Assembly: GCA_016874775.1 (NCBI GenBank) | Contig: VGTJ01000005.1 | Coordinates: 5,232 to 69,231, forward strand | Source of the DNA: Deltaproteobacteria bacterium | Lineage (GTDB): Bacteria; Desulfobacterota; Binatia; Bin18 | Length of the DNA stretch: 64,000 nt | Direction: 5' to 3' | Shown here: in pieces, positions 44,931 through 64,000 of the stretch | How the letters are laid out: each line of letters begins with the position of its first letter | How positions within the stretch are numbered: position 1 is the stretch's first letter | Translations under genes and position numbers: made by a program | The notes under the pieces: model-generated | Database searches by the model: none | Told to the model about the DNA's origin: nothing | What the model saw: only the letters and a program-made list of their open reading frames with translations

Positions 44931-45542
44931 TTACTGCAATGGTAATCGCTCTTCCTCAACTACCTCAAGGTGCCCCTGTCCAGTCAGCGTGGTCAGATCG
45001 ATGTCGGCGATGCAGCGCACTTTCACGAAATTGAGGGTGACCCCGCCGACGAGGCGAGCTATGCCAGTTTGCTTGTCAAAGTCAGCGCGACTCAGATCAC
45101 TCGCCTGGGGATCAAGTCTCACTCCGAACTCTGTTCCCCCTTTGGTTGCGGGAAACTTTATTTGTACATATCCTCTGTCGATACATTGTTGCAGGATCTT
45201 GGCTGTTTTCTGCGGACGAAGACTCACTTCGACTGGGTGGCTTCCTGCAGCTAAGCGTTGCACCAGGTCATCCTTGGTACTTTCTTCGGTCGCCTTCCCA
45301 CCAGCATGGGGCTCGGGGCGGGGGGCGCGCGCGGCCTCTGCCATTTGTTTGCGCAGACTCAGTGGTCGCATGTCGGTCCATACAGTTTCGATGTGAGCCA
45401 AACATTCGGCTTTAAGCCCGCTTTTCCCGGCGTCTTTCCAACCTAGCGGGTTCTCACGATCGGCGGGAAGGATGGAGTATTGCTCTTCGTGATTCACTAC
45501 GACCTTGTAGATGGTGGTATCTTCTTGTTCTTCTCTTGGCAT
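44931..45542 (-). CDS. MbtH-like protein fused to a roughly 130-aa C-terminal domain of unknown function
   Basis: The N-terminal 70 aa read [58 protein letters not shown], matching the MbtH signature (N-x-E-x-Q-x-S-x-W-P ... P-x-G-W ... W-T-D-x-R-P). The remainder (GGKATEEST...[26 protein letters not shown]) has no motif I recognise. Confidence 0.85.
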
Positions 45543-45663
45543 GTGCTCCTCCTACTTGCTTGATCAAGGATGATGTGGATGGCAATCACTAACTGTTTAT
45601 GAGTTCTCTGAGTGTGACGAGTTGCGCTATGTCATATTTTCAGTCCGGCTGATACATCTCATT

Positions 45664-46485
45664 CTACGCCAATACGCTCGCAATCGATCGTAGCAGCACG
45701 TCGCGGTCTGAACGTAGGAAGAAATGATCTCCGGGAAACAGATGCAGTCTCGCGACTCCCGTCGTATGTTCTCTCCAGACCTCAACTTCTTGTGGCAACA
45801 CCTCGATATCTTGGCGACCGGCGTACAATATGAGGGGGCAATTGAGTGGTGATTCAGGAACAAAGCTGTAACGGTCGCACATGGTAAAATCCGCACGCAA
45901 CACCGGCAATGCGAGCTTGCGCAGTTCTGGATGTTCAAATACCCCGTCGGGAGTGCCGCCAAGACGACGCACTGCTCGGATGAATTCTCCATCAGGCAGA
46001 CCAGAGAGGGGTTGTCGACGTAACGGTAAATGCGCGGCCCGGTGAGCTGAGAGGAAGAGAGCGCGCGGCAAGGGACCGTCGTGTCGCCGCAAAGCCCTGG
46101 TCAGTTCGAACGCCAATAGCGCACCCATGCTGTGGCCGAACAGGGCGAATGGTTTCTCAGCGTAGGCGAGGATCTCGTGAGCAAGGCGCTCGGCTAACAC
46201 TCCGACATTGGTGTAGAGCGGTTCGCTCAGGCGATTCTCCCGTCCGGGAAGTTGTATTGGGCATACTTCGACCATCTGGGGAAGTGCTGGTCCCCAGGTG
46301 CGATAGATCGACGCAGCGCCCCCAGCAAAGGGGAGACAAAACAGCCGCACTTGAGCCGTTGGCTTGGGGAATGGACAGGTAATCCAAGCGTTGAATTTCG
46401 TCTGTCCCGGTGGTGAAGAGGTCCCTATAGTACGACCAAAAGAGGAATCGGGTAACAAGCGCGGATTTCGTGTGTGCTCTCCCAT
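45664..46485 (-). CDS. Type II (editing) thioesterase
   Basis: RLFCLPFAGGAASIYRTW and FALFGHSMGALLAFEL (GxSxG) are the alpha/beta-hydrolase TE-II pattern. The start is placed at the ATG at 46485-46483, 4 nt after the TGA of the upstream megasynthase (TGAACCGATG). The ORF track's longer 332-aa version would overlap the upstream gene. Confidence 0.85.
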   Translation of the reverse strand: MGEHTRNPRLLPDSSFGRTIGTSSPPGQTKFNAWITCPFPKPTAQVRLFCLPFAGGAASIYRTWGPALPQMVEVCPIQLPGRENRLSEPLYTNVGVLAERLAHEILAYAEKPFALFGHSMGALLAFELTRALRRHDGPLPRALFLSAHRAAHLPLRRQPLSGLPDGEFIRAVRRLGGTPDGVFEHPELRKLALPVLRADFTMCDRYSFVPESPLNCPLILYAGRQDIEVLPQEVEVWREHTTGVARLHLFPGDHFFLRSDRDVLLRSIASVLA

Positions 46486-46489
46486 CGGT

Positions 46490-49400
46490 TCAGGCCTCGT
46501 CACTGAGAAGTTCGTTGAGCTCCGCCAACAGCGCTTGCGCAGTAGCGAGCGGAGAGTTGTTACTGGGTTCGGGTTGCACGGGATTGCGCGGCGGTGAGGT
46601 CGCTGGCTCAATGTCGGCGAAGAATTCACCCAATTGTGTCTCGACGTAATTGACGATGTCATTCACAGTTGGATAGTTAAACACCAGACTCACCGGCAAA
46701 GGCCGTTGCAGGTCGCTGGCAATGGCATTGCGCATTTGTACTGCCATCAAGGAGTCCAAGCCTTGATCGATCAGCGGTTTAGTGAGATCCAACGGCTGGG
46801 AGTCAGAGACACCCAGAACCCGCCGTACGGTATTGTGCACGAAAGTGCTCAGAATATGTTTGCGGTTTTCTGGCAGGGCGAACCTGAGAGGGCCCAGTAT
46901 GTCTGGTGAGCCGGTGCCATTGGTCGTAACCGTCGCTGATACGACGGTACTCAAGCTATGATGGCGATTTTCTGGCAGGGGGTGCTTGAGCTGGCCGAGT
47001 ATCTCCGGTGAGCCGTTTCCGTTGGTTTCGCTCACGACTAATCGAGACGTGCGCATCAGCTCTGCAAACAGGCTGTGTGGCTCAGTGAGTTGACTGAGAT
47101 AGGTTTGCCAATTCCAATTCATGGCGATGACCTGCGTCACGTCACCGGTTACAATCTTCCCCAACAGCGCAAGCCCATCACCAGGTTTGATACCAACAAA
47201 GCCCTGGCGGCTCATGCGCTGCTGAATAGCGGGGTCAGACATCGCTATGCCGATCTGAGCCCACGGTCCCCAGTTGATACTGGTGGCGACCAATCCTTTT
47301 GATCTCCGATAGTGGGCTAGCTCATCGAGAAACGCGTTGGCAGCGGCATAGTTTCCCTGGCCCTGATTGCCCAGCACGGAAGCAGCCGATGAAAACAAGA
47401 CAAAAAAATCTAAGTCAAGGTTCTGAGTATGCTCGTGGAGCAACCAGGCCCCATCGACTTTCGCCGGCAGGACGCGCTGGAAGCGTTGCCAGCTTTGTTC
47501 GATGAGCATACCGTCTTCAATGCCTCCGGCACAGTGAATGACTCCACGTAAACTTGGCAGGCTCTTATGGATCTTGCCGAAGACCTCGGTCATGGCATCG
47601 CGATCGGAGACGTCAGCCTGAACGACATGGACCTTAACCCCCGTCTGTTCCATATCCTTGATGGCTTCTCTCGCTATTTGTGAAATCTGGCGACGAGCCA
47701 CGAGGATCAGGTTTCGCGCCCCCTGTGTTACCAGCCATCCCGCTGTGCGGAGTCCTAAGCCACCCGTACCACCGGTGATGAGGTAACTGGCATCCGCGCG
47801 GACAACTGTCTGATTGCCGCTCGCGAGTTCAGGCTGCTGGAGCAAGCGGGTGACATAGCGAACGCCCTGGCGCCACGCTATCTGCGCCCCTTCATCAGCA
47901 GCGTTGAGGGTTGCCAACAGGTCAGTAGCATCAGGTGCACTCGCTGTCGGGTCGAGGTCGACACAGGTGCACTGTAGTTCAGGGTGTTCAAGCCTCACAA
48001 CTTGACCGAGTCCCCATAACGGTGCCTGCTGCAGGTGGGGGAGGGCAGGTTCAGTGCCCACCGACTGTCCACCACGGGAGATCAACCACAGCCGTGGTTG
48101 GTGAGCCCAGTTCGCCTTGACTAGAGCTTGGACCAGATACAAGGTGCTTGCACACGTGAGAGTTTGGCCTTGGAAGCGCCAATCCTCACACTCGAGGCTC
48201 GATTCGTCTACGCTCCACAAATGCACCACGCCGTCATACGCCCTCGCCTTGCCAACACTCTCTACGAGTAATCGCGTAAAATCCTGCGGCTGCGTTGGGT
48301 TAATACAATAGTCATCGAGCGCATTCACGGAATAGATCTGGCCTGGAGCCACAAGCACGCAACGTGCGCCTTGCGCTCGCAACTGTTGCGCCAGCTGATA
48401 AGCGGTTCCCTGCTGGTCCGCGAAAATCAACCACTGCCCTGGCTTATCAGTAAGTCGGCGTGGATGGTCAACGGCTATCGGCAGCCAGGATCTCTGGTAC
48501 AAGCGGTCATCGGCCGTGACAGGCAGATGTCGCAGGACGGCGTCATGCTTGGCAGGCCGTGCTTCCAAGCCAACGAACTCCAGCGTCGCCTGCCCATGCT
48601 GATCGTATATCCGCACATCGGCAACGAGACGGCGTGTTTCTCCGGCATCACGCAAAGTGACGTGCGCCCACGATTGCGTAGGATCCGGCTCTTGGTGCAC
48701 GCGCACTTCCTCAATGCGGAAGGGGAGCCAGGTCTCACCCTCTGCCAGATCCGCAGTGACCAGTGCTAAGCTCAAGCAAGCATCGAGAAAACCTGGATGG
48801 AGCAGCTTCGCATCGAGCCCTCCCAATGATTCGGGAACGCGGAGCCTGCAGACCGCCTCTCGCTCTCCCCGTCGCAGGCCCTCGAACCAGCGATAACTCG
48901 GGCCTAGGTCGATATGACGAGCGGCCTGGGTAGCGAAGAACGTGTCAACCGAGACATCTTGCTGACAGCGTTGCCAGACGACCTGCTGCGCCTCGACATT
49001 GGCGCGAGTGACTTGATGTCCCCAATGGACGACAGCTTCGACGTGGGTGGACACGCTGGGCTCGGCTTCATATGTTGCCTCGGCAAAGCTCACGAGTTGC
49101 AAGGTCGTGGTTTCTCCTGCTGGCGTGAGTATCACTTGCACAGTCCGTGACTGCCCTTCAGGAATAATGAGCGGTTGCAGGAAGTAGATATCTTTCACCG
49201 CATACGCGCCGTGACCGCGGGTTTGTGAGATGGCCGCCAGGAGCATTGCAATATAGCTGGTGCCAGACACGAGCGTTTTACCGAACACACGGTGATCTTG
49301 CAAGAAAGGTAAAGCCTGTGTACTGAAGTGATTTTCGTAAATCGTGATCTTCAGTGTTGGCAGATGCAGCTTCGTACCCAGGAGTGAGTTTGTGCTGATG

Positions 49401-52400
49401 TGGCTCTGGGAAGAGATATGTACTTCACGGTCTGCGCTGGCCGGTCGATCAAGCCAGTAGCGCTGGCGCTCGAATGGATAGGTCGGTAGTGGGACCCGAC
49501 GGCGCTGATAATCACTGTCGAAACCTGTCCAGTCTACCGGGGCGCACACGGCCAAGCGGCCCAAGCTAAACAAAAGTTGCTGCCAATCCGACTGTCCCTG
49601 ACGCAGACTCGGAAGCCAGACAGCCGTATCCGACTCTACACAGCGCGCCCCCATGCCGAGTAACGTGGGCTTTGGTCCAATCTCGATAAACGTTTGGTAT
49701 CCCCGTTGAGCAAGAGTCTCCATACCAGACCGGAATTGGACAGGCTGCCGGATATGGCGACACCAGTACTCAGGGGAGGCAATCTCGTCGGCTATGACCT
49801 CACCAGTGAGGTTGGACACGATCTCGATCTGTGGCGCCGCATATGCGATCTGTGCAGCAACGCGAGCGAAGTCATTGAGCATGGGCGCCATTAGCGGCGA
49901 GTGGAAGGCATGCGAAGTATTCACTTTCTGTGTTGTAACCCCGGCCTCATGCAATCGACTGCGAATGCTTGCCACTGCCTCGGTGCGACCGGAAATCACA
50001 GTATGGTCAGGACCGTTCTCGGCGGCAATGGCAACCTGACTGCTAAAAGGAGCGAGACATGGCTGAACCTGGGCTTTACTTGCAAACACAACGAGCATCT
50101 CGCCGTCGTGCGGCAATGCCTGCATCAGGCGAGCTCGGTGCGTCACCAACGTGAGTCCGTTCTCCAGGCTGAATACTCCAGCAATACAGGCGGCAACATA
50201 TTCACCGAGACTGTGTCCCATAACGATGGAGGGGGTAATGCCCCACGACTTCCATAGTTGGGCCAGCGCATATTCCAGCGCGAAGAGTGCGGGTTGGGTG
50301 TAGGCAGTTTCGTTGAGGGGTGAGGTACTGGGGTCCGCCGGATACAAGACGTCGAGTAACTGCACGTCGAGCATGGGCCGCAAGATTTCCGCACAGTGGT
50401 CGAGGTGTTGGCGAAAGATGGGCTGGGTCTCATAGAGTTGGCGTCCCATTCCCACACACTGTGATCCCTGGCCGGTAAAGAGAAACGCGATCCGATCGTG
50501 CGCTTGGGTGGTTGCCTGGCCTCGTATCGCGCGGCTCTCGCCGCTGGCTAGTCGGCTGAGGTCGTCGCGCAGTTGTGCAACGGACTCGGCAACCACTGCC
50601 AAACGGTGCTCAAAGAGCTTGCGACCGGTATTGGCGGTGAAACAGATATCCGCCAGTGAGGTTTCGGGGTGATCCGTGAGAAACCGAACGTAGCGGCTGG
50701 CCAACTCCGACAAGGCCGTCTCCGTACGTGCGGACAGCACCAGGATGTGCTGCGGACGTTCTACCGTATTTTCCACCGCCGCCATGGGTGGCGCTTCCTC
50801 AAGAATGACGTGGCTGTTGGTGCCACCAATACCCAACGAGTTCACCCCAGCACGCCGCGGGGAACTTGTCGCTTTCCATGGCGTGGGCGTCGTGGCAACG
50901 TAAAATGGACTGTTCTCGAAGTCGATGCCAGGATTGGGTTTTTGAAAGTGGAGGGTTGGCGGGATCATCTGGTGTTGGAGCGCAAGGACAGTCTTAATGA
51001 AACCGACCATTCCTGACGCGATCTGCAGATGGCCGACATTGGTTTTGACTGAGCCAAGGGCGCAAAATCCGCTTTCCGTGGTGTGCGCGCGAAACGCCTG
51101 GGCCAGAGCATTCACTTCGATCGGGTCGCCCATCTCAGTGCCAGTACCGTGAGCCTCAACAAAGCCTATGGTATCGGGGGCGACATCAGCGATTGCCATC
51201 GCCTCGGCGACAACAGTCGCCTGCCCCTCGGCGCTGGGCGCCATATACCCGACCTTCATCCCACCATCATTGTTGACGGCAGAACCTTTGATGACCGCAA
51301 AGATGTGGTCGCGGTCGCGCACCGCATCTTCTAATCTTTTGAGTAACACCACGCCAACACCACTGCCGAAGATCGTTCCTTTGGCCTGTGCGTCAAAGGC
51401 GCGACAGTGGCCGTCGGGAGAAACAATCATGCCGTCCTGAAACAGATGGCCTGCGCGATGCGGCACTTGCACAGACGATCCAGCCGCGAGGAACATATCG
51501 CCTTCGCCACTGAGGAGCGACTGGCAGGCAAGGTGGATCGCGACCAAGCCGGTGGAACAAGCAGTTTGCACATTGATGCTCGGACCGCGCAGATTGAGTT
51601 TGTAGGAGAGTCGCGTTGTCAGGTAGTCCTTGTCATTGGCGACCATGAGTTGGAAGCCGCCCATCGAGTCCAGGGTCGTTACCCGCAGGCTATCGTGTGT
51701 ATCCAGGGTGTCGCGGTTGGGGTAGACATTGTTGAGTAGGTAGGTGTTCATGCTCGCCCCGGCGTACACACCAATTGCTCCTGGATAGGTAAGCGGGTTG
51801 TAGCCTGCAGTTTCGAGCGTTTCCCAGGCGCACTCAAGTAACAGTCGGTGCTGTGGGTCCATCAATGTGGCTTCGCGGGCGGTATAGCCAAAAAAACCAG
51901 CGTCAAAGCTTTCGACATCCGACAAGAGGGGACTCGCCGGCACATAGTTCGGATGGCGGGCGACGGCCGGATCAATTCCTGAGCCGAGGAGTTCATCCTC
52001 GCTAAAGAACGTAATCGACTCGACTCCTGTAGCGAGATTACGCCAGAAGTCATCCAGGGTGTCGGCTCCGGGAAAGCGACAAGCCATGCCAACCACCGCG
52101 ATCATGCCTTTGTCCTCGGAGACGCGGAAGCGGTTGCGCGCTTGCGCGCGTTCCATCCCGCGTTGTGGTGCTGTGTCTTGAGAGCCGCCATTGCTCAGCA
52201 GTTGGACGAGTGAGTGGATGGTCGGACATTTGAAGAGATCGACCAACGTGAGTTGCGAGCCAAACATCTGCGTGAGCCGAGTGTGGGCCTGGACCAGAAG
52301 CAGCGAATGGCCGCCGAGTTCAAAAAAGTTGTCATGGACCCCAACCTCGGGCACCTCCAGAATGTCCTGCCATACCTTAGCGATCTGCAGCTCCATCTCA

Positions 52401-55400
52401 GACACCGGCACCTGGCGCGCTGCCGCTTCCGGCTCCTGCCCCTGTGCAAGTCTCTGCAACCGATGCACATCGATCTGGCCGGCTGCGGTGAGCGGCATCT
52501 CAGGCAGATGCTGTAGCGCACTATCAGGACGACAGCCGGGATGACGTCCGAACTCGTCCTCGCTAAACAGGCGCTCGTAAAAGGGGTGCTGTTTGTAACG
52601 CTGCTGATGGTGGTACGAACCATGAGTAAAGTCGCGGCGCTCACCGTTGGTGCGGACGAGGGTGCCGTTGATGACAAAGTCGGGATTGAGCCCATTGTCG
52701 CACACCGTCCGCGTAATCTTCGCCGTGATGCGGTCACCCGGAGTGACGTCGATGCCAGGACAGAACACGGGCATATACACTGGCAGCCAACTGTACTCAT
52801 GTTCAATGATGTCGATGACTTCGCAGTCGATGGTCTGCAGGTTCAACCACACGAGGAACCCGTCAAATCGCGACGCCTGATCAATGACCAACTCAATCTC
52901 GTGCTGTTGCGCAAGCGGAATCGTCTGACTGAAGTCCAAATCCTCGAAGACTGCCGAGTTAGAGAGCAGATGGGTGTGCGGGAACTTCTTGATACAGACC
53001 CTGAGATCGAAGGGATAGCCGATCTGGGCAAAGATCTTTTCGGTGTACGTTCCCGGCACCCGATAGAAGCCCGGGTGGGACAACAAAGCATCGGGCAAAC
53101 TGACCGCGGCGATGCGTGTGACACTGCGACTCGGAATCATAACTCCGCCGGGGCGCAGGAAGCGCTGGGCGTCGTTAATCACCACAGCGGCACCTTCGCA
53201 ACCGCCAATCGGTCCGACGATTTCTGAGACACACACATCAACCAACTCGGGCAGTTCGACTGCAGCCGAGTTGCCGTGGAGCATGGTTATGCGATCATCA
53301 AGACCCAATTGTTGAATATAGCTTGAGGCTTGGGCGAACGCCTCGTCGCCCATTTCTATGGCGTAGACCTTGCGCGCTCCGGTCTCAACAGCGAGCCTGG
53401 CTAAAATCGCCTCCTTGCCAGTGCCGATGTCGAGCACGACTTTATCCCGCACGGTTTTTTCCAGCGCGACGCGATATTTACGATTGCGGCGTTCGTCATT
53501 GGCCAAGGCATAGTAGATAAGATCGTCGTAGACATAGTACTCCGCTACTGATGGCCACAGCTCGATCTGCTCACTGCCCGCGCTCTCAGGTTCGCGCATC
53601 TGCACGTACTCATAGTGAGCAACTGCACCGTAGCGATCGACCAGCGGGAGTGCACCCAACTGCTCGCGGGAGACTGATCGATGAGCGGTAAAGAAGAGCG
53701 AGGTCTTCCGTAGCTCCAGCGGACCAGCGAACATCCGAGCCCGGAGGAGTGGGCTGTCGCCATCGAGACCAACCACCAACCGCGCTTCACCGAGTTGCAG
53801 GCCAACGATAATGGAATTGACAATGCGACGTACTGCAACAGGAAGCTGCGCATGGGCAGAGTCGTGCGTATGTGCGGGAGCATTAACGAGGTCGTCCAAC
53901 GCGGCCACGCTCAACCCGTAGACGTGTAGATTACCGCGTTTCTCAAGATGTGAGATGAGTCGATCTTGGAACGCAGAGCTAGCCGCCACCGCGCACCGTC
54001 CACCGGCGTCGAGTACGTGGGCGGCTGAGGACACGGTAATGAATACGCTGCCCCGCTGCTTCCGCAGAAGCTCGACAAGCGACCACACACCTGCCACTTC
54101 TGGAACGAACGTGGTGGCGAGAGTGTCCTTACTCTCCTCGAGCAGCGACCGTTGGGATGGACTTGCCGCGAGGTGAATGGCCCCGTCCAGCGTGGCTCCC
54201 CACTGAGCCAGAGGGCCGTCAAGCGCGCGCTGTAGCGCCTCTGCATCTTGGATGTCGACCGCAGCATAGACACAGTTGCCCGACAGTTGTCGCAGGCGGT
54301 GATATATCGCCTGCCGCTCGTCGGTTGTGCCCTGGTCAGCATGCTCGTCCGTCGGCAACGGCTCTTTTCCTAAGAGGACGAGGCGAGCCTTGAACCGTGT
54401 GAGTAGAAACTCTGCGACATGCGGTCCGATTCCTTCTAGGCCATTGTTCACGAGATAAACACCATGCCGTTGGAAGGGGAGATCGCGGCTCTGTTGGTTT
54501 GTTGACGTAGCGACGGGGACTTGTTGCAGACCCGACACCCAACGTTGGTTTCCTCGATAGGCAACTTCGCGATCGGCTAGCGCTCCCAGGACCTCCCGGG
54601 TAATGGCCGGCGCGTAGGTGTCATACGCTTCTGCAGGACAGTCAATGTGCAGGCAACGTAACCATGAGAGTTCCTCACTCACGGTGTGAAGGAGGCCCGG
54701 AAGTGTCGCCTTGGCGTAGGCGCTCGCCTCGTGAGCCAGGATGGCTTGAGCATTACTGGAAACCGCTAGCAATCGCACGGGCGTATGGGACGCGAGGGCG
54801 GCGAGAGCCTGCACCAAGAAGAGCATGCTGTAGAAGCCCTGCTGCTGTGTGCGCTCAATTCCCTCCCGACTTTCGCTCATTTGCAGATCGGCGTCATAGC
54901 TGAAGAGGTGGACAACGGAGCCTATCTGGACCCCTGAGTCTCTCAGTGTCTCTAACACGATGTGATAGTGCCGTGGGTCCTCGGGTCGGATGGAAAAGTG
55001 AGTTGCGCCGCGCTGGGCAAAGGTCTCGCTAGCCTCAACGACCACGCACGTAACGCCGCGGGCGGTGAGTTCCGCAACCATCTGCTGTCCAAGGCCAAGA
55101 CGATCAAGCAAGACTAGACAGGCTCCTTGCTGCTTCTGCGGTGCTCCCACCAGGTCCTTGCGGTGCCATACCTGCTTGTAGAACCACTCAGGAAGAGTGT
55201 GCTCATTCGCCGCGAACAGATCGAGGCGCTCAAGAATGTCCTGAAACACACCCTGATAGAACTGCTCGACGAGTTTTTTGCGCTGGAGTTTGCCGATCGC
55301 CGTCTTGGGGATGGCATCGCGGTCAAGCGGGATCAAGAAATCCGCTTTGATGCCAAGCTGCTTTGTCAATCGCAACTGAATGGCGCGTAGAAGCTTGCGC

Positions 55401-57514
55401 AGGAACCCGTCGTCCCCATACGGCGTATGGAAGAACACGGCCAACTTCTGCGCGTCACTGTCTGGCGGCCGTACTGCGCAGGCCACGGTAAACGATGCAG
55501 CGACACCGTCGACTTGCTCAACCACCGCTTCAATCTCGTTATTGTAGAAGTTCGCGCCGTTGATAATGATGCCAGCATCCGCTCGTCCGGTGAGCATCAA
55601 CTCGCCACCGGAAATAAAGCCCACGTCCCCTGTGTCGAACCATCCGTTAGCCAGGAACACTTTGTTCGCCTCGGGGTTGTTGTAGTAGCCGGACGATAGG
55701 GCGTCGCCTTTGAGCTGCAGGCGTCCAGTCGTCCCCTCGGGAACGACGCGTTGCTCCTCGTCAACAATGCGCATGGAGACCCCTGGGATGACCGGCCCCA
55801 AGCTGGCAAAGGCGACGCACGTGCTTGCCTCGGGATCGGCGGGTTGGAGCGCGCCACCGAGGGTGTTGCGGTCAATATAATGAAAGGTCAAAGACTTCCC
55901 AGCAGCCGGTTGATGATACGTCACCCCAGAGCCAACCTCGGCCATGCCAAAAGCGGTCTGCAGCACCGAGAGTTGCAGGCCATACGGCGCGAGACTGTCG
56001 AGAAATTCGCTGGTCGTGGTCCGCGTGATTGATTCACCAGCAGTGAGGAGCATTTTGACGCAGGACAGATCCCACTCGCGTTGCCGCTCACCCTTGAGGG
56101 CAGCGCTGACCAGCGAATAGGCAAAATTCGGCGCCCAACTATGCGTGATGCGGTGACGATGGATGAGATCCAGCCAGCGCAGCGGGCTCCCCAACACATA
56201 TTCTTTTGGCGCATAGATCAGCGTGCAACCGAGTACGATACAGCGCAGATGCCAGTCGGAGATGCTGCCAATGTGGTCGAACGGCAGCCAATTGAAGATC
56301 ACCGCTTCGGCAGACTGCTGACACAACAGATTGGTCCCACGCGCGCGCGCCAGGATGCTGCGGTGCGTGAGCATGACTGCCTTTGGTAGCCCGGTGCTGC
56401 CCGAAGACAGGGTGTAAAAAGCAATATCATCGGGCACGGCGCTGTGGATGTTCATATCCGGCGGGTTGTCGCGCAGTTCCTCAAGTGCAGCGAGGCGGGC
56501 GTGAGCCCGTAGGGGAGGTGGCAGCGCCTTGCGGATATCTTCGACTCGGTCCCGAACGGTAAGGAGTAGGGGGCGGTCGAACAGGGTCCAAATGTGATTG
56601 AGATGGTCAAGTGCTCGGCTCTCGCCGTCGTAGGTGAGTGGCATTGGGACAATGACGGGCTCGAATCCCCCAAGCAAACAGCCCCAGAACGCAGGCAGGA
56701 TGTCGTCGTTGCAGTCGAGCTGAAAGATAACTTTGTCGCCAGGCTTGAGGCCATGCTGGCGCAGCCCGCCAAGAACGCGCCGCGCTTCCTGGAGCAACGC
56801 GCCGTAGCTCGTGACCCGCTCGGAACCCTCGCGGTCAATGTAAATGATACAGGCGCTTTCCGGCGCTGCGCACAGCACGGCAGGAAGGACCTGGGGCGCA
56901 TCCGCATGTTGCGGTATGGATTGCCCGTGGCAGAGGGCGGCAGGAACATCGCCTGCACTCTGTGTTATCACAGGAGTCACCGCGAACGCTGCTTCTGCGC
57001 GCTGCGGGACTGGTGCAGGAGGGGACGACTCACGCAACAGCTTGGCAATGTGAACATGTCGCGGCGTATCCGCCCAGTAGCCTGAGACACTAACTACTCG
57101 GTCGATCTCTGGGAGAGCAGCAACCTGTGCTTCCCATGCCGATGCCAGGTCCGCTGACCAAACGGGAACGCGCGCTAGCGCCGCTGCATCGATCGCTCCG
57201 TCCTCAGTCACCGGCAGGTACGCAACTGGCACAACCGCCGAGATGAGTTCTCCAGCGCGCTCGCGAAGCCGAGGCTCAATCTGGTCGAAGTTCTGCTCAG
57301 TCACGATAACGTAGGCCACCAGGTCCCACGTGCCTGGTTGTACCTCTCGCTTGACGACTACGCATTCCTTGACTGATGAGTCACTGAGCAGCGCGGTGGT
57401 AATGGCCTCCAGGTCAACACCGTCACCGGTGACTGGCAGGGCCTCTACTGTTGTCGTTCTCTCCATCTGTACTTGGACGGGCTTGTTGGTATTGACCGAC
57501 TCACGCATCTTCAT
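46490..57514 (-). CDS. Initiation megasynthase: [A-subdomain-like remnant]-FAAL-like acyl-activating domain-KR0-like-PRMT-fold MT-A10-like+carrier protein-KS-AT-DH-KR-ACP
   Basis: ATG at 57514 with GAAGGA just upstream. The acyl-activating domain carries [24 protein letters not shown] and [20 protein letters not shown] (FAAL/FACL type). The carrier protein carries [10 protein letters not shown]. The KS carries [26 protein letters not shown] and HGTGTEMGD. The AT carries GHSLGEY and HAFHSPLM. The DH carries [14 protein letters not shown]. The KR is intact ([29 protein letters not shown]). The ACP carries [10 protein letters not shown]. The protein ends with a docking tail. Confidence 0.93.
   Translation of the reverse strand: [3674 protein letters not shown]
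46610..52108 (-). other. First extension module KS-AT-DH-KR-ACP (KS about 50780-52108; AT about 49535-50497; DH about 48515-49417; KR about 47255-48427; ACP about 46610-46822)
   Basis: The motifs are listed under the CDS. The AT carries the malonyl-type HAFHS. The DH carries HxxxGxxxxS. The KR is fully intact. There is no ER, so the predicted output is an alpha,beta-unsaturated acyl intermediate. Confidence 0.85.
46820..47023 (-). repeat. In-frame tandem duplication (2 x 102 nt, 2 x 34 aa) in the linker just upstream of the module-1 ACP
   Basis: The protein copies are [34 protein letters not shown] and [34 protein letters not shown]. The DNA reads gcgattttctggcag at 46964-46978 and gcggttttctggcag at 46862-46876, 102 nt apart. 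The second copy runs into the ACP helix-I region. Confidence 0.8.
52190..52417 (-). other. A10-like motif plus carrier protein (PCP/ACP) of the loading region
   Basis: [20 protein letters not shown] resembles A10 [14 protein letters not shown]. It is followed by [35 protein letters not shown], a PCP of the kind that follows an A domain. Confidence 0.8.
52535..53617 (-). other. Protein-arginine-methyltransferase (PRMT)-fold SAM methyltransferase domain embedded in the loading region
   Basis: [30 protein letters not shown]...[84 protein letters not shown]. Class I PRMTs read H..ML.D..R...Y ... VLDVGCGTGILS.FAA.AGA.KVYAVE ... V.LP.KVDIIISEWMGY. The layout of the post-I motif, the D/E-rich second motif and the SE..G double-E-like loop matches. 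About 200 aa follow with the size of a beta-barrel subdomain. Confidence 0.65.
53885..55192 (-). other. KR-like (psi-KR plus Rossmann) domain lacking catalytic Lys/Tyr, inserted after the FAAL core
   Basis: It begins [14 protein letters not shown], homologous to WFYLPSWK / WFYLPGWK at the start of the KR regions in the 18883 and 36029 proteins. The Rossmann motif reads [21 protein letters not shown]. At the positions of the catalytic K and Y of the intact paralogue it reads VAGVWSL and [12 protein letters not shown], so neither K nor Y is present. Confidence 0.6.
55280..56917 (-). other. Fatty-acyl-AMP/CoA-ligase-like (FAAL-type) starter-activating domain
   Basis: [40 protein letters not shown] (FAAL LPxxHDMGL-like) and [20 protein letters not shown] (FAAL GRxKDxIIxxGxNxYPxDIE-like) are present. 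NRPS-type A8 would be GRxDxQVKIRGxRIE. The domain lacks the aa-activating A4/A5 patterns. Confidence 0.8.
57155..57397 (-). other. N-terminal extension resembling an adenylation-domain C-terminal subdomain (A8-A10 region) with no preceding A core
   Basis: [26 protein letters not shown] resembles the post-A8 pattern [30 protein letters not shown] resembles A9/A10 (MVPxxFVxLxxLPLTxNGKxDRxAL). It lies upstream of the FAAL-like core. Its translation is supported by the RBS at the ATG at 57514. Confidence 0.45.
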
Positions 57515-57624: not shown

Positions 57625-58785
57625 CTAATGCTGCGCGGGCAGTAACCACTCAGCATTGGTTACAAAAAATTTCTCTGCAGCCGTTTCCCCAAGCCGACTA
57701 ATATGTTCAACAAATTCTTGGAGAGGCCTAGTCCCTCCCTCGGGGTGAGGAAAGTCGCTGGAATAGCAGTAGCATTCTTCGAATCCGTACCGATCAATGT
57801 AGTCGGCAACCGGTTCAAAGCGATAGGGCGTGACACGGACGTTACGGCGGACATAGTCAGAAGGCTTCAGGGAGAGCACTGGAGCCAGACGACCCTTGTA
57901 AATGGCTGCGGTTTGATCGAGGCGTTCGGCCATTGGAGCTAACCAGATAGCTCCCAACTCGATAACCCCGAAGCGAAGTCGAGGAAAACGCTCAAAGACT
58001 CCACCCAGAATAACAGTGGAAAGAAAATTCTGCGGAGCATAGTGAAAAGAGGAGAAGATGTACGTGTTGACCTGCTCGCTTTCTGAGGTCATGTCCATCG
58101 GTTGAAAATTGAGATGATCGACGCCTATCGCCCAGGACTCACTCCCCAGGAAACCCCTTTCTCCTCCGGCGTGCAGGAGGGCAGCGGCGTTCGCTTCCTG
58201 GAGCAAACTCCACAACCTATCCATCTTTTTATGCGCCGGGGACATATTGCCCGGGGGAACTGCGCTGGCCATGACAAAAGCACGGCCACCGGCTTTGAGC
58301 ACCCGCTCTGCCTCGGCTGTGGCGATGTCTATGTCATGGGTATTCAGCAACGCGGCTGCACGGAGGCGCTTTGGATTGTGTTTGCCAAAACCGACCACAA
58401 AGTCATTCCAGTGACGCATCGTTCTGAGTCCGAGCTCATCGTTGGCAAACGTCGCCGCCTGAATCCCTGGGTCGGCGAAGATCAAAGCACGCTCGACCCC
58501 CATGTGGTCAAGGGTTTTCAAGCGGCCGTCGGGACTAAACGCACCTGGAGCGATGCAGCCCTTCAACTGCCATACCGTTTCGTCGGTAAAGACTGAAGAC
58601 TCTCCAGCAGTGAGTTCACTGACTTTTTTTGCTTCTGCTTCGGTCATGGTCTCCATCATCTGATGGAGCATGTTGGTAAAGTGCTTACCCACCTCTCCAG
58701 CCGCGATCTCATACGTTCGTGGACAAGGTTGGATGTGAGAATCGAGATCGTTCAAACGCCCATGAAATCGGCTCATGTCCAGCAT
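57625..58785 (-). CDS. Amidohydrolase-2 family metal-dependent hydrolase/decarboxylase (ACMSD / LigW-like fold)
   Basis: 386 aa. The N-terminal motif is NDLDSHIQ; the second His of the canonical HxH is Gln here. The C-terminal motif YCYSSDFPHPEG matches the family DxPH.E signature. The overall length is right for a TIM-barrel. Confidence 0.7.
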   Translation of the reverse strand: MLDMSRFHGRLNDLDSHIQPCPRTYEIAAGEVGKHFTNMLHQMMETMTEAEAKKVSELTAGESSVFTDETVWQLKGCIAPGAFSPDGRLKTLDHMGVERALIFADPGIQAATFANDELGLRTMRHWNDFVVGFGKHNPKRLRAAALLNTHDIDIATAEAERVLKAGGRAFVMASAVPPGNMSPAHKKMDRLWSLLQEANAAALLHAGGERGFLGSESWAIGVDHLNFQPMDMTSESEQVNTYIFSSFHYAPQNFLSTVILGGVFERFPRLRFGVIELGAIWLAPMAERLDQTAAIYKGRLAPVLSLKPSDYVRRNVRVTPYRFEPVADYIDRYGFEECYCYSSDFPHPEGGTRPLQEFVEHISRLGETAAEKFFVTNAEWLLPAQH

Positions 58786-58806
58786 TGGTTGGCTCTCCGT
58801 TGTGAA

Positions 58807-59850
58807 CTACTGCGTTCGTGGTACAGACCCCAAACCGCGACTTTCATCCACTTGATATTCAAAATTTTTCAGGATGCTCGGATCTCTCTTCTGTAATTCC
58901 TGCACCGTCGCTTCAGCGAGTGGAGGAACGACCACGCCTCCAGCGTTGCCAGTGTCCCCAGCAGGAGTACTGAGAATCAATGGCAGCCCGGAGCCATTGC
59001 CCATGACAACCACTTTACTGTTTGCTGACTTGGCCAACTCCAGAGTTGCCTCAATCCCTTTGAACTTCAGGTAGTTCTCGGAAAGTCTTGCTCCGAGAAT
59101 GTCTTGGAACGCTTTAATGCCTTGTGCTTCAATGCGTTTTCTTTCCACTTCTTTTCGTTCACGCTCGATGCGAAAGTCATAGAGGAGCACCATTTGTTCC
59201 TCTTGGTGCTTCTGTTGGACAACCTGCTGCACCCGTTCGGGGAGTATGAGCCGCATGATGCTCAGATCTGCGACTTCGATATAGTGTCGACCAATGTCGT
59301 CTTTGGCACGCTCGAACAAACTGCGCTCAAAGAGATCGGTCTCTCCTACATTGAGCGAATGCTGAGCATACATTGTTTCTGCGTCGAGGGCACTGAGAAT
59401 ATTTCGCGCCGCAGCATCGAGCGTTGGCACAATGAGTGTCTCGATATATTTCGGACCAACTTGTTGGTGCAACGCGCCAACATGATCCTTGCGCACGCGG
59501 TACATCAACCCCATATCCGCCTGGATCTCTAGACCACCGCGGGTGAGGGCGCTGACGCGCCGGGTCAGAATTTGATACCGCAGATTATAAATATACATGA
59601 TGTCGACCGGGAGAATGACGTGAAGGCCTTCGAAATACACATCGCTCGCAGCAGTCATGGTGCCAGAAAATCGCTTCCAGCGTACACCTGCCTGGCCTGA
59701 ATGAATCGAGATAAAAATACGAGGAGCAAAATAGACGAGGAAAAATGCCAGTATTAGTACGGCAAACGTCAGGCCAAAGGAGTGATACGTCAGCCAATCA
59801 CGTATCCAGATCCACGGTCTGCGCCCCCACTGTCTCAGCTTTGCGAACAT
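58807..59850 (-). CDS. SPFH / band-7 (prohibitin/HflC-like) membrane protein
   Basis: An N-terminal TM helix (FGLTFAVLILAFFLVYF) is followed by GQAGVRWKRFSG...YFEGLHVILPVD...YNLRYQILT, the SPFH core. A long charged coiled-coil follows (QKHQEEQMVLLYDFRIERERKEVERKRIEAQ). Confidence 0.8.
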   Translation of the reverse strand: MFAKLRQWGRRPWIWIRDWLTYHSFGLTFAVLILAFFLVYFAPRIFISIHSGQAGVRWKRFSGTMTAASDVYFEGLHVILPVDIMYIYNLRYQILTRRVSALTRGGLEIQADMGLMYRVRKDHVGALHQQVGPKYIETLIVPTLDAAARNILSALDAETMYAQHSLNVGETDLFERSLFERAKDDIGRHYIEVADLSIMRLILPERVQQVVQQKHQEEQMVLLYDFRIERERKEVERKRIEAQGIKAFQDILGARLSENYLKFKGIEATLELAKSANSKVVVMGNGSGLPLILSTPAGDTGNAGGVVVPPLAEATVQELQKRDPSILKNFEYQVDESRGLGSVPRTQ

Positions 59851-59894
59851 GTAAACCTATCTCTTTTCCTTTGATTCGTTGCTCAGTTTGACCG

Positions 59895-61523
59895 CTACAT
59901 GGTGACGAATTTCCCACTTTCCATTTTCAAAACGCGATCCGCGACATGAAAATAGCGATCATCATGAGTGGCCACGATAATCGTTTTACCTTGCCGCTTC
60001 ATATCCAACAAAATGTGCTCATAAAAATAGCGACGAAAGATCGGATCTTGATCGGCAGCCCATTCGTCGAATACTTGAATAGGCCGATCTTCAAGGAGCG
60101 TCACCAGCAACGCCAGTCGTTTCCGCTGGCCGCTGGATAGTTCCTGATTGACGAATCGACCATCAACGAAGCTCGTCTTGTCCTGAATCTCCAGGAACTG
60201 GAGGAGGTGCTCCACGCGCGTCGGGTCCACATCCGGTAAACCATAGAGTCGATCAAAAAGATGAAAATCGGAAAAGATAATCGAAAAGAGGTTGCGATAC
60301 CGGGCATAGGTGTCCGTAGTCAGTGGAGCCCCGTCGAGTTGGATCTGTCCGGCAGGCGGATAGTACAGGGTGGTCAGAAGTTTTAAGAAGGTGGACTTTC
60401 CGCTGCCGTTACCGCCAACAATAAAAACCGTTTCACCGGACTGAATGTGAAGATCCAACGGACCTACGGTAAATAATGGAAATCCCTGCCGATCCGTATA
60501 TTGAAACGTCACCCCCGAGAAGTCGATGCACTCAAACGCTTTTACCAAACTCACAGCTGGAGACTCCCCATTCTGGCCTGCTCGTGCATCGACATACGAG
60601 TCAAGTTGTCTCTCTAATTCGTAAATGCGTTCAATCGCCACGCCCGCCTGCCCAAACAGCGGGAGGGTGCCGATCAAATTGGTCAACGGACCAATGATAA
60701 ATAGTATCGTGGCGGTGGCTTTCATAACCACGCTCGAGTACGTGGCACTGAGCTGTGGCACGAGGAACACAATTCCTCCCACGACCAGGTAAAAGATCGT
60801 TTGCGATATAGCAAAGTCATTCGCAAAGCGGGTACCTATGGAAATCTTGAGATCTGCGACTGCGGCAGAGGCGTCTTGCACGTGAAGAGCGAGGTCGCGA
60901 CTGCGCGACTCATGCATTTTCACTTCCTTGAACCCATCGAGGATATGTGTGAGCGCTTCAAAGAAACGATTATCTCGGACGAACGCTTCCTTCAGGGAAT
61001 CCGACATCTCTCGCATTCTGTGAAAGTGAATCGACAAACCAACCGCGGTTAACACCAGCATCAACAGCAACGCAATCAGTGATATGTAGCCAAGATACAC
61101 AAGACTAAACAACACGAGACACGCAGCCTGACACGCATGAATCATTGGTTGCGTTGTCTGAGAGATTGCTTGAATTTCCGTGTTGACGCTGGCATAGATT
61201 CGCGCTCTGCCAATACCTTCCAATGGCAGCAGCTCAGCATAGCGAATTTTATTGGTGAGCCGCTCGCGAAGATCCTTGAGAATGGTTTCCACTAAGGTTG
61301 TAGAGGACACCAACAGTGATTTCTCCGCTAATATATACATTGCGAGTGCAATAGCGAAGAGGAACAGAAACCGAGTGGTACTTTGCTGATCCTCCACGCT
61401 GGCAGCAGCGACATTAATAATCGCAAGCAGTACAACACTCATTATTCCCGAAAGGACCGCCATGCCTCCCAAACTGTAAAGAGAGGCGTTCGATTCTTTC
61501 AAGAGAAAACGAATCAGCACCAT
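59895..61523 (-). CDS. ABC exporter, fused permease-ATPase, cyclic-peptide-transporter type (SyrD / SbmA-BacA-like)
   Basis: An N-terminal transmembrane domain of about 300 aa is followed by a nucleotide-binding domain with Walker A GGNGSGKST, signature LSSGQRKRLALL, Walker B IQVFDEW and H-loop ATHD. The LSSGQ and DEW variants are typical of the NRPS-associated cyclic peptide transporter family. Confidence 0.88.
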   Translation of the reverse strand: MVLIRFLLKESNASLYSLGGMAVLSGIMSVVLLAIINVAAASVEDQQSTTRFLFLFAIALAMYILAEKSLLVSSTTLVETILKDLRERLTNKIRYAELLPLEGIGRARIYASVNTEIQAISQTTQPMIHACQAACLVLFSLVYLGYISLIALLLMLVLTAVGLSIHFHRMREMSDSLKEAFVRDNRFFEALTHILDGFKEVKMHESRSRDLALHVQDASAAVADLKISIGTRFANDFAISQTIFYLVVGGIVFLVPQLSATYSSVVMKATATILFIIGPLTNLIGTLPLFGQAGVAIERIYELERQLDSYVDARAGQNGESPAVSLVKAFECIDFSGVTFQYTDRQGFPLFTVGPLDLHIQSGETVFIVGGNGSGKSTFLKLLTTLYYPPAGQIQLDGAPLTTDTYARYRNLFSIIFSDFHLFDRLYGLPDVDPTRVEHLLQFLEIQDKTSFVDGRFVNQELSSGQRKRLALLVTLLEDRPIQVFDEWAADQDPIFRRYFYEHILLDMKRQGKTIIVATHDDRYFHVADRVLKMESGKFVTM

Positions 61524-61735
61524 AGCGGATACTTATCGGCGGCGCAGAGCATGTTCTACAGCTTCCACCACAGAGGTTGATACGCCCGATGGAAAGCGTC
61601 GGCGAACTTCCCCTCTCGACTCTTCCATCAGTCGTCGTAACATCCCGTCACTTACGCATCGAACGAGGCAAGAGATTTCATAGCACATCCCCTCTATGTT
61701 GCCACTGCAATTGGAAGAACGGGCATACCAGCAAC

Positions 61736-62239
61736 TCACGCTTTCGCGGCGTTTGCTTCAGCCTCTGGCTTTTCGGGACTTCTGTTTTTCATCTGCGCGG
61801 CCAGCGTTTTTCCCGCCTCAAACTCTTGCTTGAAATGTGCGCGCATTTTCGCAGGTTCGAAATCAAGCAGCGTGCCGCCTGACTCAAAATGCTGGATAAA
61901 CACTTTCCCTACGGCGTAGGTCGAAGCGCCAGCAAAAATCGGCAGCCCTACCATGCCAGCGAACTGTCCCACACCAGGGATAACCTTCAACAACGATCCT
62001 ATGGGCCCGTAAGCGAACGCGCCGGGCGCAACAGAACCTATCAATGTACTAACAATTAATTTCACTCGGTTCTTCGCAAATGGAATAGCATAGTGATCGG
62101 CGAGATCTTTGGCCATTTTCAGCTGTATCCCGGTGAGCAGGACAAGATCCCACACCGGCACGGGAACCAGTCCTGCTCCCATGGACAACCACATATACTT
62201 CGTGACCATGCGCCGGGCTGCACTTTCTTTCTCTTCCAT
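61736..62239 (-). CDS. Small membrane protein, DUF697 (YcjF C-terminal domain)-like
   Basis: 167 aa. GAGLVPVPVWDLVLLTGIQLKMAKDLADHYAIP...IGSVAPGAFAYGPIGSLLKVIPGVG resembles the DUF697 hydrophobic hairpin region. The C-terminus is charged and Lys/Glu-rich. The family assignment is tentative. Confidence 0.5.
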   Translation of the reverse strand: MEEKESAARRMVTKYMWLSMGAGLVPVPVWDLVLLTGIQLKMAKDLADHYAIPFAKNRVKLIVSTLIGSVAPGAFAYGPIGSLLKVIPGVGQFAGMVGLPIFAGASTYAVGKVFIQHFESGGTLLDFEPAKMRAHFKQEFEAGKTLAAQMKNRSPEKPEAEANAAKA

Positions 62240-62538: not shown

Positions 62539-63765
62539 TTACCGGGCAGGAACCGTAATGGGTATGTCATTATTGGAGATATCAGTCACTGTCATTTGGT
62601 ACAGGCCGGAGAGCAAGATGAAGGCGAGCGTATCCCAGGGGTTATTGGGAATAGAGTAGTATTTCCCTTCATAGGTAATGCTGAGCGCTGCATCCGAGGG
62701 GCGAGAATTGGTGACGTTAACCGCGAGCGTTCGTGCGGGATTTTGTAAGGCACCGCCCGTCTGCGGATCTTTTCCGACCTGATTGTCTGGATTCTGACTC
62801 ATCATAGCGGCAATAGAATGGAGGATTGCTTGAAAACTGCGGAATTTGATCGCCCCAAAGATCGGGAGCTCTCCACCAGGATGATTAGGGCGAACATCAA
62901 TCAGGAGATAATTGATTGCATTGGCCTCGGCAAGCGCATTTAAAGTTTTACGCTCCTCATTCGCAAGCGCCCGGGCTTGATAATTAGAGAGCAGCGCTCG
63001 ACCAGTTTTCGCGAAAGTAAATTCATCCTTGTCACCCAGGTGTCGCTGCTGATAGCCTTTTTCTGCTGCGGCTGCCATTTCCATCACCGAGAACGGCGTA
63101 GCCGCTGGTCGCTGAAATGTCTCGTTGTAGGAAAGAGTCTCGATAAACAGATTAGGCTCCGCCGGATTATACAAGCCGGCCAGGTGCGCCGCTATGCGAC
63201 GAAACTCCTCATAGTCTTGGGGGTCGGCGGGAGAGTTTAAGATAAATCTTTGGGGTTTTCCGGTGCTACGATCCTGAACCTCAATTCCGTCAACCATCAT
63301 ATGAAGAACCATGTCCATGGGCAGGCGTTGGAACACGAGAAAAGTAAATTTGCTGACATCCATAGGCGTCAAGATTCTTCGAGTAAACTCCTCTCCCTGA
63401 ATGGGCACGATACTGAGCGTTGGGAGTTCCGCGACCGTGGCTCCCACTCCAAAAGTATAAGTATTACTTGCAGGGAAGGCTTTTCTGAATGTGGTTTCGA
63501 AGATGTTCCCTCCAAAGCTTGCCGTAGCGCCATAATTAAAAGCCGCCACGATACTTGACGTCCCAGTAAAGTGCGTCGGTCGATTTAGATGCACACGAGC
63601 GATATTGGTTAAGATGATCTCTCGATCCAGTTGACTGATCGTTTCATCATAGCTCAACACCGCTTTATGAAGCGCCAAGGGGCCAAAACAGCCAGGCAAA
63701 AGACAGGAGCATAGGACCAATAGTAAAAGCGCTAATGCGCGCATAGTTTTTCCCCATAAAGACAT
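62539..63765 (-). CDS. Putative secreted lipoprotein of unknown function
   Basis: The preferred start is the ATG at 63765, giving MSLWGKTMRALALLLLVLCSCLLPGCFG, a signal peptide plus a lipobox-like LLPGC. The ORF track's 63948 start would add 61 aa with no features. The mature protein is Asn/Thr/Phe-rich and I do not recognise a family. Confidence 0.6.
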   Translation of the reverse strand: MSLWGKTMRALALLLLVLCSCLLPGCFGPLALHKAVLSYDETISQLDREIILTNIARVHLNRPTHFTGTSSIVAAFNYGATASFGGNIFETTFRKAFPASNTYTFGVGATVAELPTLSIVPIQGEEFTRRILTPMDVSKFTFLVFQRLPMDMVLHMMVDGIEVQDRSTGKPQRFILNSPADPQDYEEFRRIAAHLAGLYNPAEPNLFIETLSYNETFQRPAATPFSVMEMAAAAEKGYQQRHLGDKDEFTFAKTGRALLSNYQARALANEERKTLNALAEANAINYLLIDVRPNHPGGELPIFGAIKFRSFQAILHSIAAMMSQNPDNQVGKDPQTGGALQNPARTLAVNVTNSRPSDAALSITYEGKYYSIPNNPWDTLAFILLSGLYQMTVTDISNNDIPITVPAR

Positions 63766-64000
63766 TGTCTCTTGACCTCTATAGATTTCGTCATGCTGCC
63801 CCCGCCGTCCGCAGGCGTACCCACCCAGGCTAAAACCACAGGGTGCGTATTCCCAAGAATGGCCATGACAGTCTTGGGCATTTAGGAACCTGAAGACTAT
63901 CCTATTAACTTTGTGAGGTCGCTTTCTCGGATTTTGTTTCTGACCCACCCCTACACACTTTTCTTCCTTGGCGCATGTGAGCGGAAGGATCCTCCACGGT

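Follow-up and report, generated by a model that had tools for sequence, protein, structure and literature searches.

The gene under study occupies positions 44931..45542 on the minus strand of the window, the stretch of 64,000 nucleotides that was analysed as a whole. It encodes a protein of 203 aa which starts with ATG and ends at a stop codon at 44931..44933 (-), and a Shine-Dalgarno sequence (AGGAGG, 45548..45553, minus strand) was read 5 nt ahead of the ATG. The gene is the final one of a minus-strand operon and lies 121 bp downstream of the gene for a type II thioesterase (TE-II; 45664..46485, minus strand, called at 273 aa; Pfam Thioesterase, E 1.4e-46). Upstream of both, in the same operon, lies the gene for a hybrid megasynthase of 3674 aa (46490..57514, minus strand), which according to Pfam and the motif scan begins with a FAAL-like AMP-binding loading domain. 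The gene is convergent with the plus-strand NRPS/PKS genes, the last of which ends at 44842, and a scan for the A3 core motif places all five canonical A domains of the window on these plus-strand genes. The extent of the reading frame, its place after the TE-II and the number of A domains are the same as in the preliminary description of this locus. An identical 203-aa protein is encoded on 11 contigs, among them contigs from three different samples (a freshwater metagenome of JGI and two sequencing runs made independently), so that the reading frame is not an accident of sequencing or assembly, and full-length homologues at 62-91% identity are abundant. A scan for promoters and terminators around the gene gave no signal above shuffle expectation. 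A set of genes encoding DUF697, SPFH/Band_7, ABC transporter and TE-II proteins is common to the window (57625..62239, minus strand) and to an unrelated contig (L091, 6480..12336), which suggests a conserved export or membrane-associated module of these clusters. At the upstream end of the minus-strand block lies an ORF of 469 aa (62539..63948, minus strand) without a Pfam match at E up to 1e-3.

MbtH-like proteins are activating chaperones, which dock 1:1 on the A domains of NRPSs and stabilise or activate them, improving their solubility or adenylation activity. Residues 1-72 of the window protein (45327..45542, minus strand), comprising three strands and two helices, are a clear member of this family (PA2412 of Pseudomonas aeruginosa, YbdZ, MbtH), as judged from the HMM, the match to PA2412 and the predicted β-sheet-plus-helix structure. 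This agrees with the MbtH domain originally placed at the N-terminus. The Pfam family PF03621 is matched at E 5e-20 (71.1 bits, where the cut-off is 27, with model positions 2-52 of 53 aligned), the best PDB matches include PA2412 (E 7e-23 for residues 8-71, and 68% identity by Foldseek), and pLDDT is about 90 across residues 11-50 of the full-length AF2 model. The location of the gene in an NRPS cluster, beside a TE-II, is likewise shared with the family. In contrast to the classical members, which are stand-alone proteins of about 70 aa (60-80 aa), the window protein has 203 aa and a second folded domain. It also departs from them in the signature NxExQxSxWP...PxGW...L...WTDxRP with its three invariant Trp, which had been described as complete: every position is present but the first Trp, which is replaced by Leu (W25L; codon 25, CTT, 45468..45470, minus strand, aligned to PA2412). 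The motif YSIWP (W25 in PA2412 numbering) consequently reads YSILP. This Trp is invariant in all 77 MbtH domains of related loci (40 fused and 37 stand-alone), and among the 25 full-length relatives aligned Leu25 is otherwise found only in the closest, P0001, which is 91% identical. In MbtH/A-domain crystal structures (SlgN1, EntF-YbdZ), Trp25 is one of the two Trp forming the cleft that contacts the A domain, and the replacement could therefore weaken classical A-domain docking of the window protein. An MbtH domain at the N-terminus of a larger polypeptide is also known from the SlgN1 (PDB 4GR4/4GR5)/NikP1 type, and the MbtH part of SlgN1 is a weak homologue of the domain found here (E 2e-3). 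In that type, however, the fusion partner is the A domain itself, whereas the C-terminal part of the window protein lacks an AMP-binding match and is, as described below, CBFβ-like.

The MbtH-like domain is followed by a Pro/Ala-rich linker, residues 73-90 (45273..45326, minus strand), which is unconserved and carries indels in the alignment of the 25 relatives and has a pLDDT below 50 in the AF2 model. Beyond it, residues 91-197 (44952..45272, minus strand) are strongly conserved in the same alignment and form a domain of a helix, a strand, a helix and five strands. Its conserved motifs are DLVxRL, HPVE, T-x-G-G-T-E-L-G (133-140), LTLN[YF]VKVRC (168-177) and GxGxLE (188-193). The C-terminal domain has a pLDDT of 82-95 in the full-length AF2 model, and when modelled by itself it reaches a mean pLDDT of 87.3 and a pTM of 0.75. 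The pTM of the full-length model is 0.50, which indicates, at the level of the model, no confidently fixed packing of the two domains against each other.

The preliminary description, whose quoted C-terminal sequence corresponds to residues 104-203, found no motif there that it could place. The region does match Pfam CBF_beta (PF02312), marginally, over residues 118-198 (26.5 bits against a gathering score of 25; model positions 45-130 of 167). A Nitrospirales homologue (L001) matches the same model at 34.9 bits, while several stand-alone members of the family score under its cut-off. A profile built from 48 stand-alone bacterial members and the window domain, when searched against PDB sequences, retrieved 13 distinct CBFβ sequences at E around 1e-5 (best E 8e-6), the next match being at E around 1. 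BLASTP against human CBFβ gave 31% identity over 95 residues; region 39-132 of the human sequence used was confirmed by the alignment from the profile search. The structural comparison points the same way. With the domain-only model, Foldseek against the PDB returned 38 matches at E<0.01, all of them CBFβ chains, the top one being 3wts_G (E 2.9e-6, TMq 0.71, 26% identity), and with the full-length model the matches below E 1e-3 were CBFβ and MbtH structures only. Pfam, profile, BLASTP and Foldseek searches thus agree in identifying the C-terminal domain as remotely homologous to core-binding factor β of eukaryotes, and this identity is well supported. A match of the window protein to Glyco_hydro_49N (Pfam E 0.015) is under the cut-off of that model and was regarded as noise. 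No enzyme family was matched by the CBFβ-like domain in Pfam, NCBIfam or PADLOC; NCBIfam gave no family for the fusion protein or the stand-alone CBFβ-like proteins, and PADLOC gave no defence-system match.

The relationship to CBFβ (CBFβ/PEBP2β; PF02312; PDB 1E50, 1H9D, 3WTS, 4N9F) is one of homology rather than identity. The folds are alike, a partly open β-barrel with helices as caps (TMq 0.71, rmsd about 3 Å over about 112 columns), homology is detectable at the sequence level (24-31% identity, profile E 8e-6), both domains are small and non-catalytic, and both share an N or D equivalent to N104 of CBFβ as well as a C-terminal GxGxLE. The bacterial family, however, with its approximately 107 residues, matches only residues 40-133 or thereabouts of CBFβ and is without most of the N-terminal segment, the C-terminal helix and the tail. 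Furthermore, the partner of CBFβ is RUNX, with which it forms a heterodimer and whose DNA binding it enhances, whereas the conserved genomic partners of the bacterial family are MbtH, in NRPS clusters, and a small protein termed X below. Among those window proteins that were scanned, there was no match to a Runt domain. The RUNX partnership by which CBFβ is defined is not established for the bacterial domain, and the scores lie close to the Pfam cut-off; we therefore treat the domain as a distinct sister family, neither an orthologue of CBFβ nor CBFβ proper, and claim homology alone.

The family is large. When 1.84 billion cluster representatives were searched exhaustively by HMMER, residues 86-203 serving as the query, 366 clusters were obtained at E up to 1e-3, and a profile search of a 90%-identity database gave 3933 proteins. 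Among the best 150 of the 366 clusters (50%-identity cluster representatives), 59 are complete stand-alone proteins of about 105-125 aa, which start exactly at the domain boundary (M-x-[DE]-L-V-x-R-L), showing that the CBFβ-like domain is autonomous. Another 24 of these 150 are MbtH fusions, with MbtH at the N-terminus every time, and the remainder are fragments or rarer architectures. As read from the source names of the database proteins, cyanobacteria of the heterocystous and pleurocapsalean groups commonly have stand-alone members, which are present in Chloroflexota and Gammaproteobacteria as well, while fused members are found in Tectomicrobia, KSB1, Methylomonas albis, Nitrospirales and others. 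The preliminary description had noted that the extension would be a disordered tail if it had neither homologues nor a predicted structure; it has thousands of homologues and a confidently predicted fold.

The names given to these proteins in databases differ. Stand-alone proteins of 108 aa are labelled 'MbtH domain protein' by NCBI (P0273, P0284, P0286, P0302, P0314 and others) although PF02312 alone matches, a name probably spread by transfer from fused proteins, and JGI sometimes labels stand-alone members 'Core binding factor beta subunit'. A full-text search of the literature for MbtH or NRPS together with CBFβ or core binding factor, for 'MbtH domain protein', for MbtH fusions and for protein X gave nothing relevant. 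The bare domain tag is already present in domain databases, and what is new is an MbtH-type NRPS accessory system with a putative extra conserved CBFβ-like subunit.

In some members of the family the architecture departs from both common forms. Six of them (P0125, P0164, P0184, P0197, P0226 and P0229) carry N-termini that resemble signal peptides or membrane anchors and are without an MbtH domain, and, going by these sequences, the CBFβ-like fold may have further uses, beyond the cytoplasm and beyond NRPS systems. In one of the six, P0184 (217 aa), a segment resembling an acyl carrier protein appears to be inserted in a β-hairpin of the CBFβ-like domain; it may be genuinely nested there, or the sequence may be a chimera of metagenomic origin. 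One possible role for the fold would be that of a container, the β-barrel binding a substrate, an intermediate or the final product of the synthetase for delivery or self-protection. An extracytoplasmic ligand binder would fit the signal-peptide-like N-termini, the barrel is partly open, and the second tier of Foldseek matches consists of lipocalins and siderocalins. These matches are, however, non-significant (E about 0.09, probability at most 0.25, TM about 0.25), we know of no ligand pocket in CBFβ, and a binder of small molecules would leave the strict coupling to MbtH unexplained. We therefore regard this role as very improbable.

The coupling to MbtH is apparent from the genomic neighbourhoods. 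Three genomes of cyanobacteria, complete or nearly so, have the stand-alone gene 44-117 bp upstream of a gene for an MbtH protein of 73-77 aa, on the same strand and inside NRPS/PKS clusters. The stand-alone proteins of Calothrix sp. PCC 7716, Nostocales HT-58-2 and Egbenema bharatensis are 58-73% identical to residues 91-203 of the window protein, and their genes always adjoin an MbtH gene in such clusters. The stand-alone form is a separate gene of 108-116 aa, usually upstream of MbtH and usually after the gene for X, whereas in the window the two domains are fused and X is absent. A broader view was obtained from 80 metagenome loci, a sample which, owing to the alignment used, favours relatives that share at least 62% identity with the cyanobacterial type. 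The domain is fused to an N-terminal MbtH in 40 of these loci. In 26 loci the two are split and MbtH follows downstream, on the same strand and at a distance of less than 600 bp, and in four loci the MbtH gene lies 9-150 bp upstream on the same strand, so that MbtH is fused or within 600 bp in 70 of the 80. In one further locus it is found 1068 bp downstream, and none was found in the remaining nine; in seven of these nine the flank on one side is shorter than 1 kb, leaving only two to three well-flanked loci without MbtH. Of the 34 loci that span 8 kb or more, 26 have a megasynthase ORF within 6 kb. A TE-II gene is found nearby in 28 loci, and the gene lies in an NRPS cluster both in the window and in the Nitrospirales MAG L001.

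The recurrence of the fusion bears directly on the possibility that the gene at 44931..45542 is an artefact, either a domain with a disordered tail or the product of a frameshift or an assembly error that joined two genes. No support for this was found, the sole related observation being that the pair also exists as two genes elsewhere. It is refuted by the identical protein on 11 contigs, by the same domain order in the 40 fused loci, which were sampled independently, and by the pLDDT of 82-95 in the C-terminal domain. Moreover, the linker keeps the reading frame and differs in length between relatives, as it should in a real fusion, and we give the artefact virtually no credence. The fusion of MbtH to an additional domain that was first pointed out is hence genuine and structured, and other fusions of the kind exist in numbers; it is not unusual, being one state of a widespread pair which is also found split.

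An NJ tree of the CBFβ-like domains mixes fused with split forms, and the pair has accordingly been kept together through several events of fusion or fission. The usual order of the split genes, with the CBFβ-like gene ahead of MbtH, is the reverse of that in the fused proteins, and the fusion is therefore no simple read-through of the common pair. The rare split loci in fusion order, L043 (9-bp gap), L069 and L072 (47-bp gaps) and L037 (150-bp gap), nest among the fused forms on the tree and look like recent fission or near-fusion events. Two of the four fused genes that were checked on long contigs, L005 (10001..10606, 5.4-Mb contig) and L090 (10001..10615, 1.0-Mb contig), have no NRPS gene within 10 kb. 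They resemble the orphan MbtH genes of other bacteria and may, as orphan copies, serve clusters located at a distance. The neighbour of the fused gene in L090 is a regulator of 1009 aa (Trans_reg_C/AAA_16/TPR) on the opposite strand.

One explanation for the tight linkage to MbtH, raised already in the preliminary description, is that the CBFβ-like domain is a docking device which recognises one A domain, or another domain of the synthetase, and steers MbtH to a chosen module while stabilising nothing. A flexible linker of 18 residues would suit such a tether, and in a cluster with five A domains and a FAAL-like loader the choice could matter. The domain nevertheless retains 58-73% identity between clusters that differ widely in synthetase and phylum, which speaks against the recognition of a particular module, and the copies that lie far from any NRPS, together with the frequent association with X, which points to a partner outside the synthetase, weigh in the same direction. 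Steering of this kind appears unlikely.

Protein X emerged from clustering of the neighbouring ORFs as a family of approximately 100-135 aa with the motif MGKYCKAY...LYLQENYVVTDGIF.DENIIFD.VTPEW..FC...L.FE.P. The gene directly adjoins the CBFβ-like gene on the same strand in 49 loci (for example L008 11399..11755, L009 9580..9927, L011 5626..5982 and L071 6272..7057, with 45 further loci). When the count is confined to loci flanked by 700 bp or more on each side, 24 of 28 split loci have X, as against 13 of 34 fused ones. Longer versions of the protein carry N-terminal ankyrin repeats, and in P0199 X is itself fused to the CBFβ-like domain. Searches for matches to X in Pfam, NCBIfam and PDB sequences found none, and all of its 1205 database relatives are unnamed or named 'hypothetical protein'. 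Another cluster of neighbours, comprising 59 ORFs, was discarded as antisense ORFs overlapping the conserved gene.

The constant proximity of these genes could also be understood if the CBFβ-like domain regulated MbtH by capping it. The domain would then bind MbtH, in cis or as a separate subunit, and control its availability, acting as an anti-MbtH or as a stabiliser of free MbtH and possibly being released by X. By Rosetta-stone reasoning, the simplest expectation for fused or adjacent partners is that MbtH and the CBFβ-like domain contact each other directly, and the adjacency of X in 49 loci and its fusion to the domain in P0199 likewise speak for a cap. Still, AF2 gives no confident inter-domain packing (pTM 0.50), and the MbtH domain is a typical PA2412-like one at 68% identity in the Foldseek match, PA2412 itself being a stand-alone protein of 72 residues. 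A cap therefore seems to us rather improbable.

The pattern of conservation within the domain offers a more specific lead. CBFβ is a non-catalytic β-barrel subunit whose partners, the Runt domain of RUNX and also HIV Vif, are bound and stabilised by it. The most conserved motif of the bacterial family, T-x-G-G-T-E-L-G, aligns with residues A59-L66 of CBFβ, a segment that includes G61, a residue also reported at the RUNX interface. In the BLASTP and profile alignments N171 of the window protein (codon 45030..45032, minus strand) is aligned with N104 of CBFβ, and the position is occupied by N or D in 87 of 87 sampled loci and in 49 of 49 distant members of the family (136 in total). In CBFβ, N104 is needed for RUNX binding (PMC10866659, PMC13121600). 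Taken together, the role of CBFβ in animals and the conservation at N104/N171 lead to the proposal that the bacterial domain would likewise be a partner-binding, stabilising subunit, with the reservation that the conserved motifs could also be structural, as parts of β-turns, and not an interface.

According to this proposal the gene would encode a two-domain NRPS accessory protein, the CBFβ-like part being a partner-binding subunit which works together with MbtH; we favour this reading, with a confidence that stays somewhat short of even. The N-terminal MbtH domain, to go by its family, would dock on A domains and stabilise or activate them, and the CBFβ-like domain would be a second non-catalytic subunit which binds and stabilises a partner, held by the flexible linker at 1:1 stoichiometry with MbtH. 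The face bearing the T-x-GGTELG and LTL(N/D)Y motifs, the counterpart of the RUNX-binding face of CBFβ, would clamp a component of the assembly line, which could be MbtH itself, a segment of the synthetase beside the MbtH site or, where the genome has it, protein X. The CBFβ-like domain and MbtH, and X where present, would thereby work in one complex on the synthetase. We infer the physical complex, the surface used and the identity of the partner from the observed domain identities, fold, conservation and genomic coupling. Several observations count against the partner-binding subunit. The full-length model with its pTM of 0.50 and disordered linker gives it no fixed arrangement, two fused genes lie more than 10 kb from any NRPS (although orphan MbtH genes are known), the signal-peptide-like N-termini of some members suggest a fold not restricted to cytoplasmic NRPS work, and W25L may weaken A-domain docking in the window protein. 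An extra binding or tethering function which the extension would confer on MbtH is, in our analysis, the most plausible class of explanation, as had been suggested at the outset.

A wider extension of the partner-binding reading is possible, if on balance doubtful. MbtH, the CBFβ-like protein and, in part of the genomes, X would form a conserved NRPS accessory complex of two or three subunits, in which the barrel clamps its partner as CBFβ does RUNX or Vif. Many synthetases of cyanobacteria and of uncultured phyla would need the whole set for folding or activity, and animal CBFβ would be descended from the bacterial family or share its origin. Co-expression of MbtH-like proteins is a routine means of rescuing NRPS A domains that are insoluble or inactive, with MbtH assumed to be the sole small helper. 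The present data show that a second conserved, non-catalytic protein accompanies MbtH, fused to it or as a neighbour, in sequences that number in the thousands and come from cyanobacteria, Nitrospirota, Tectomicrobia, KSB1, Chloroflexota and Gammaproteobacteria; often X is the third of the group. If these proteins are functional partners, their omission could explain failures in the heterologous expression of NRPS clusters from cyanobacteria and metagenomes, and the CBFβ-like protein and X would be simple additions to expression toolkits. A large bacterial sister family of CBFβ is also unexpected in its own right, CBFβ being known as the cofactor of RUNX and studied in leukaemia and in the biology of HIV Vif. 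The bacterial family offers a possible evolutionary origin for the CBFβ fold and a simple system in which the stabilisation of a partner by this fold may be studied.
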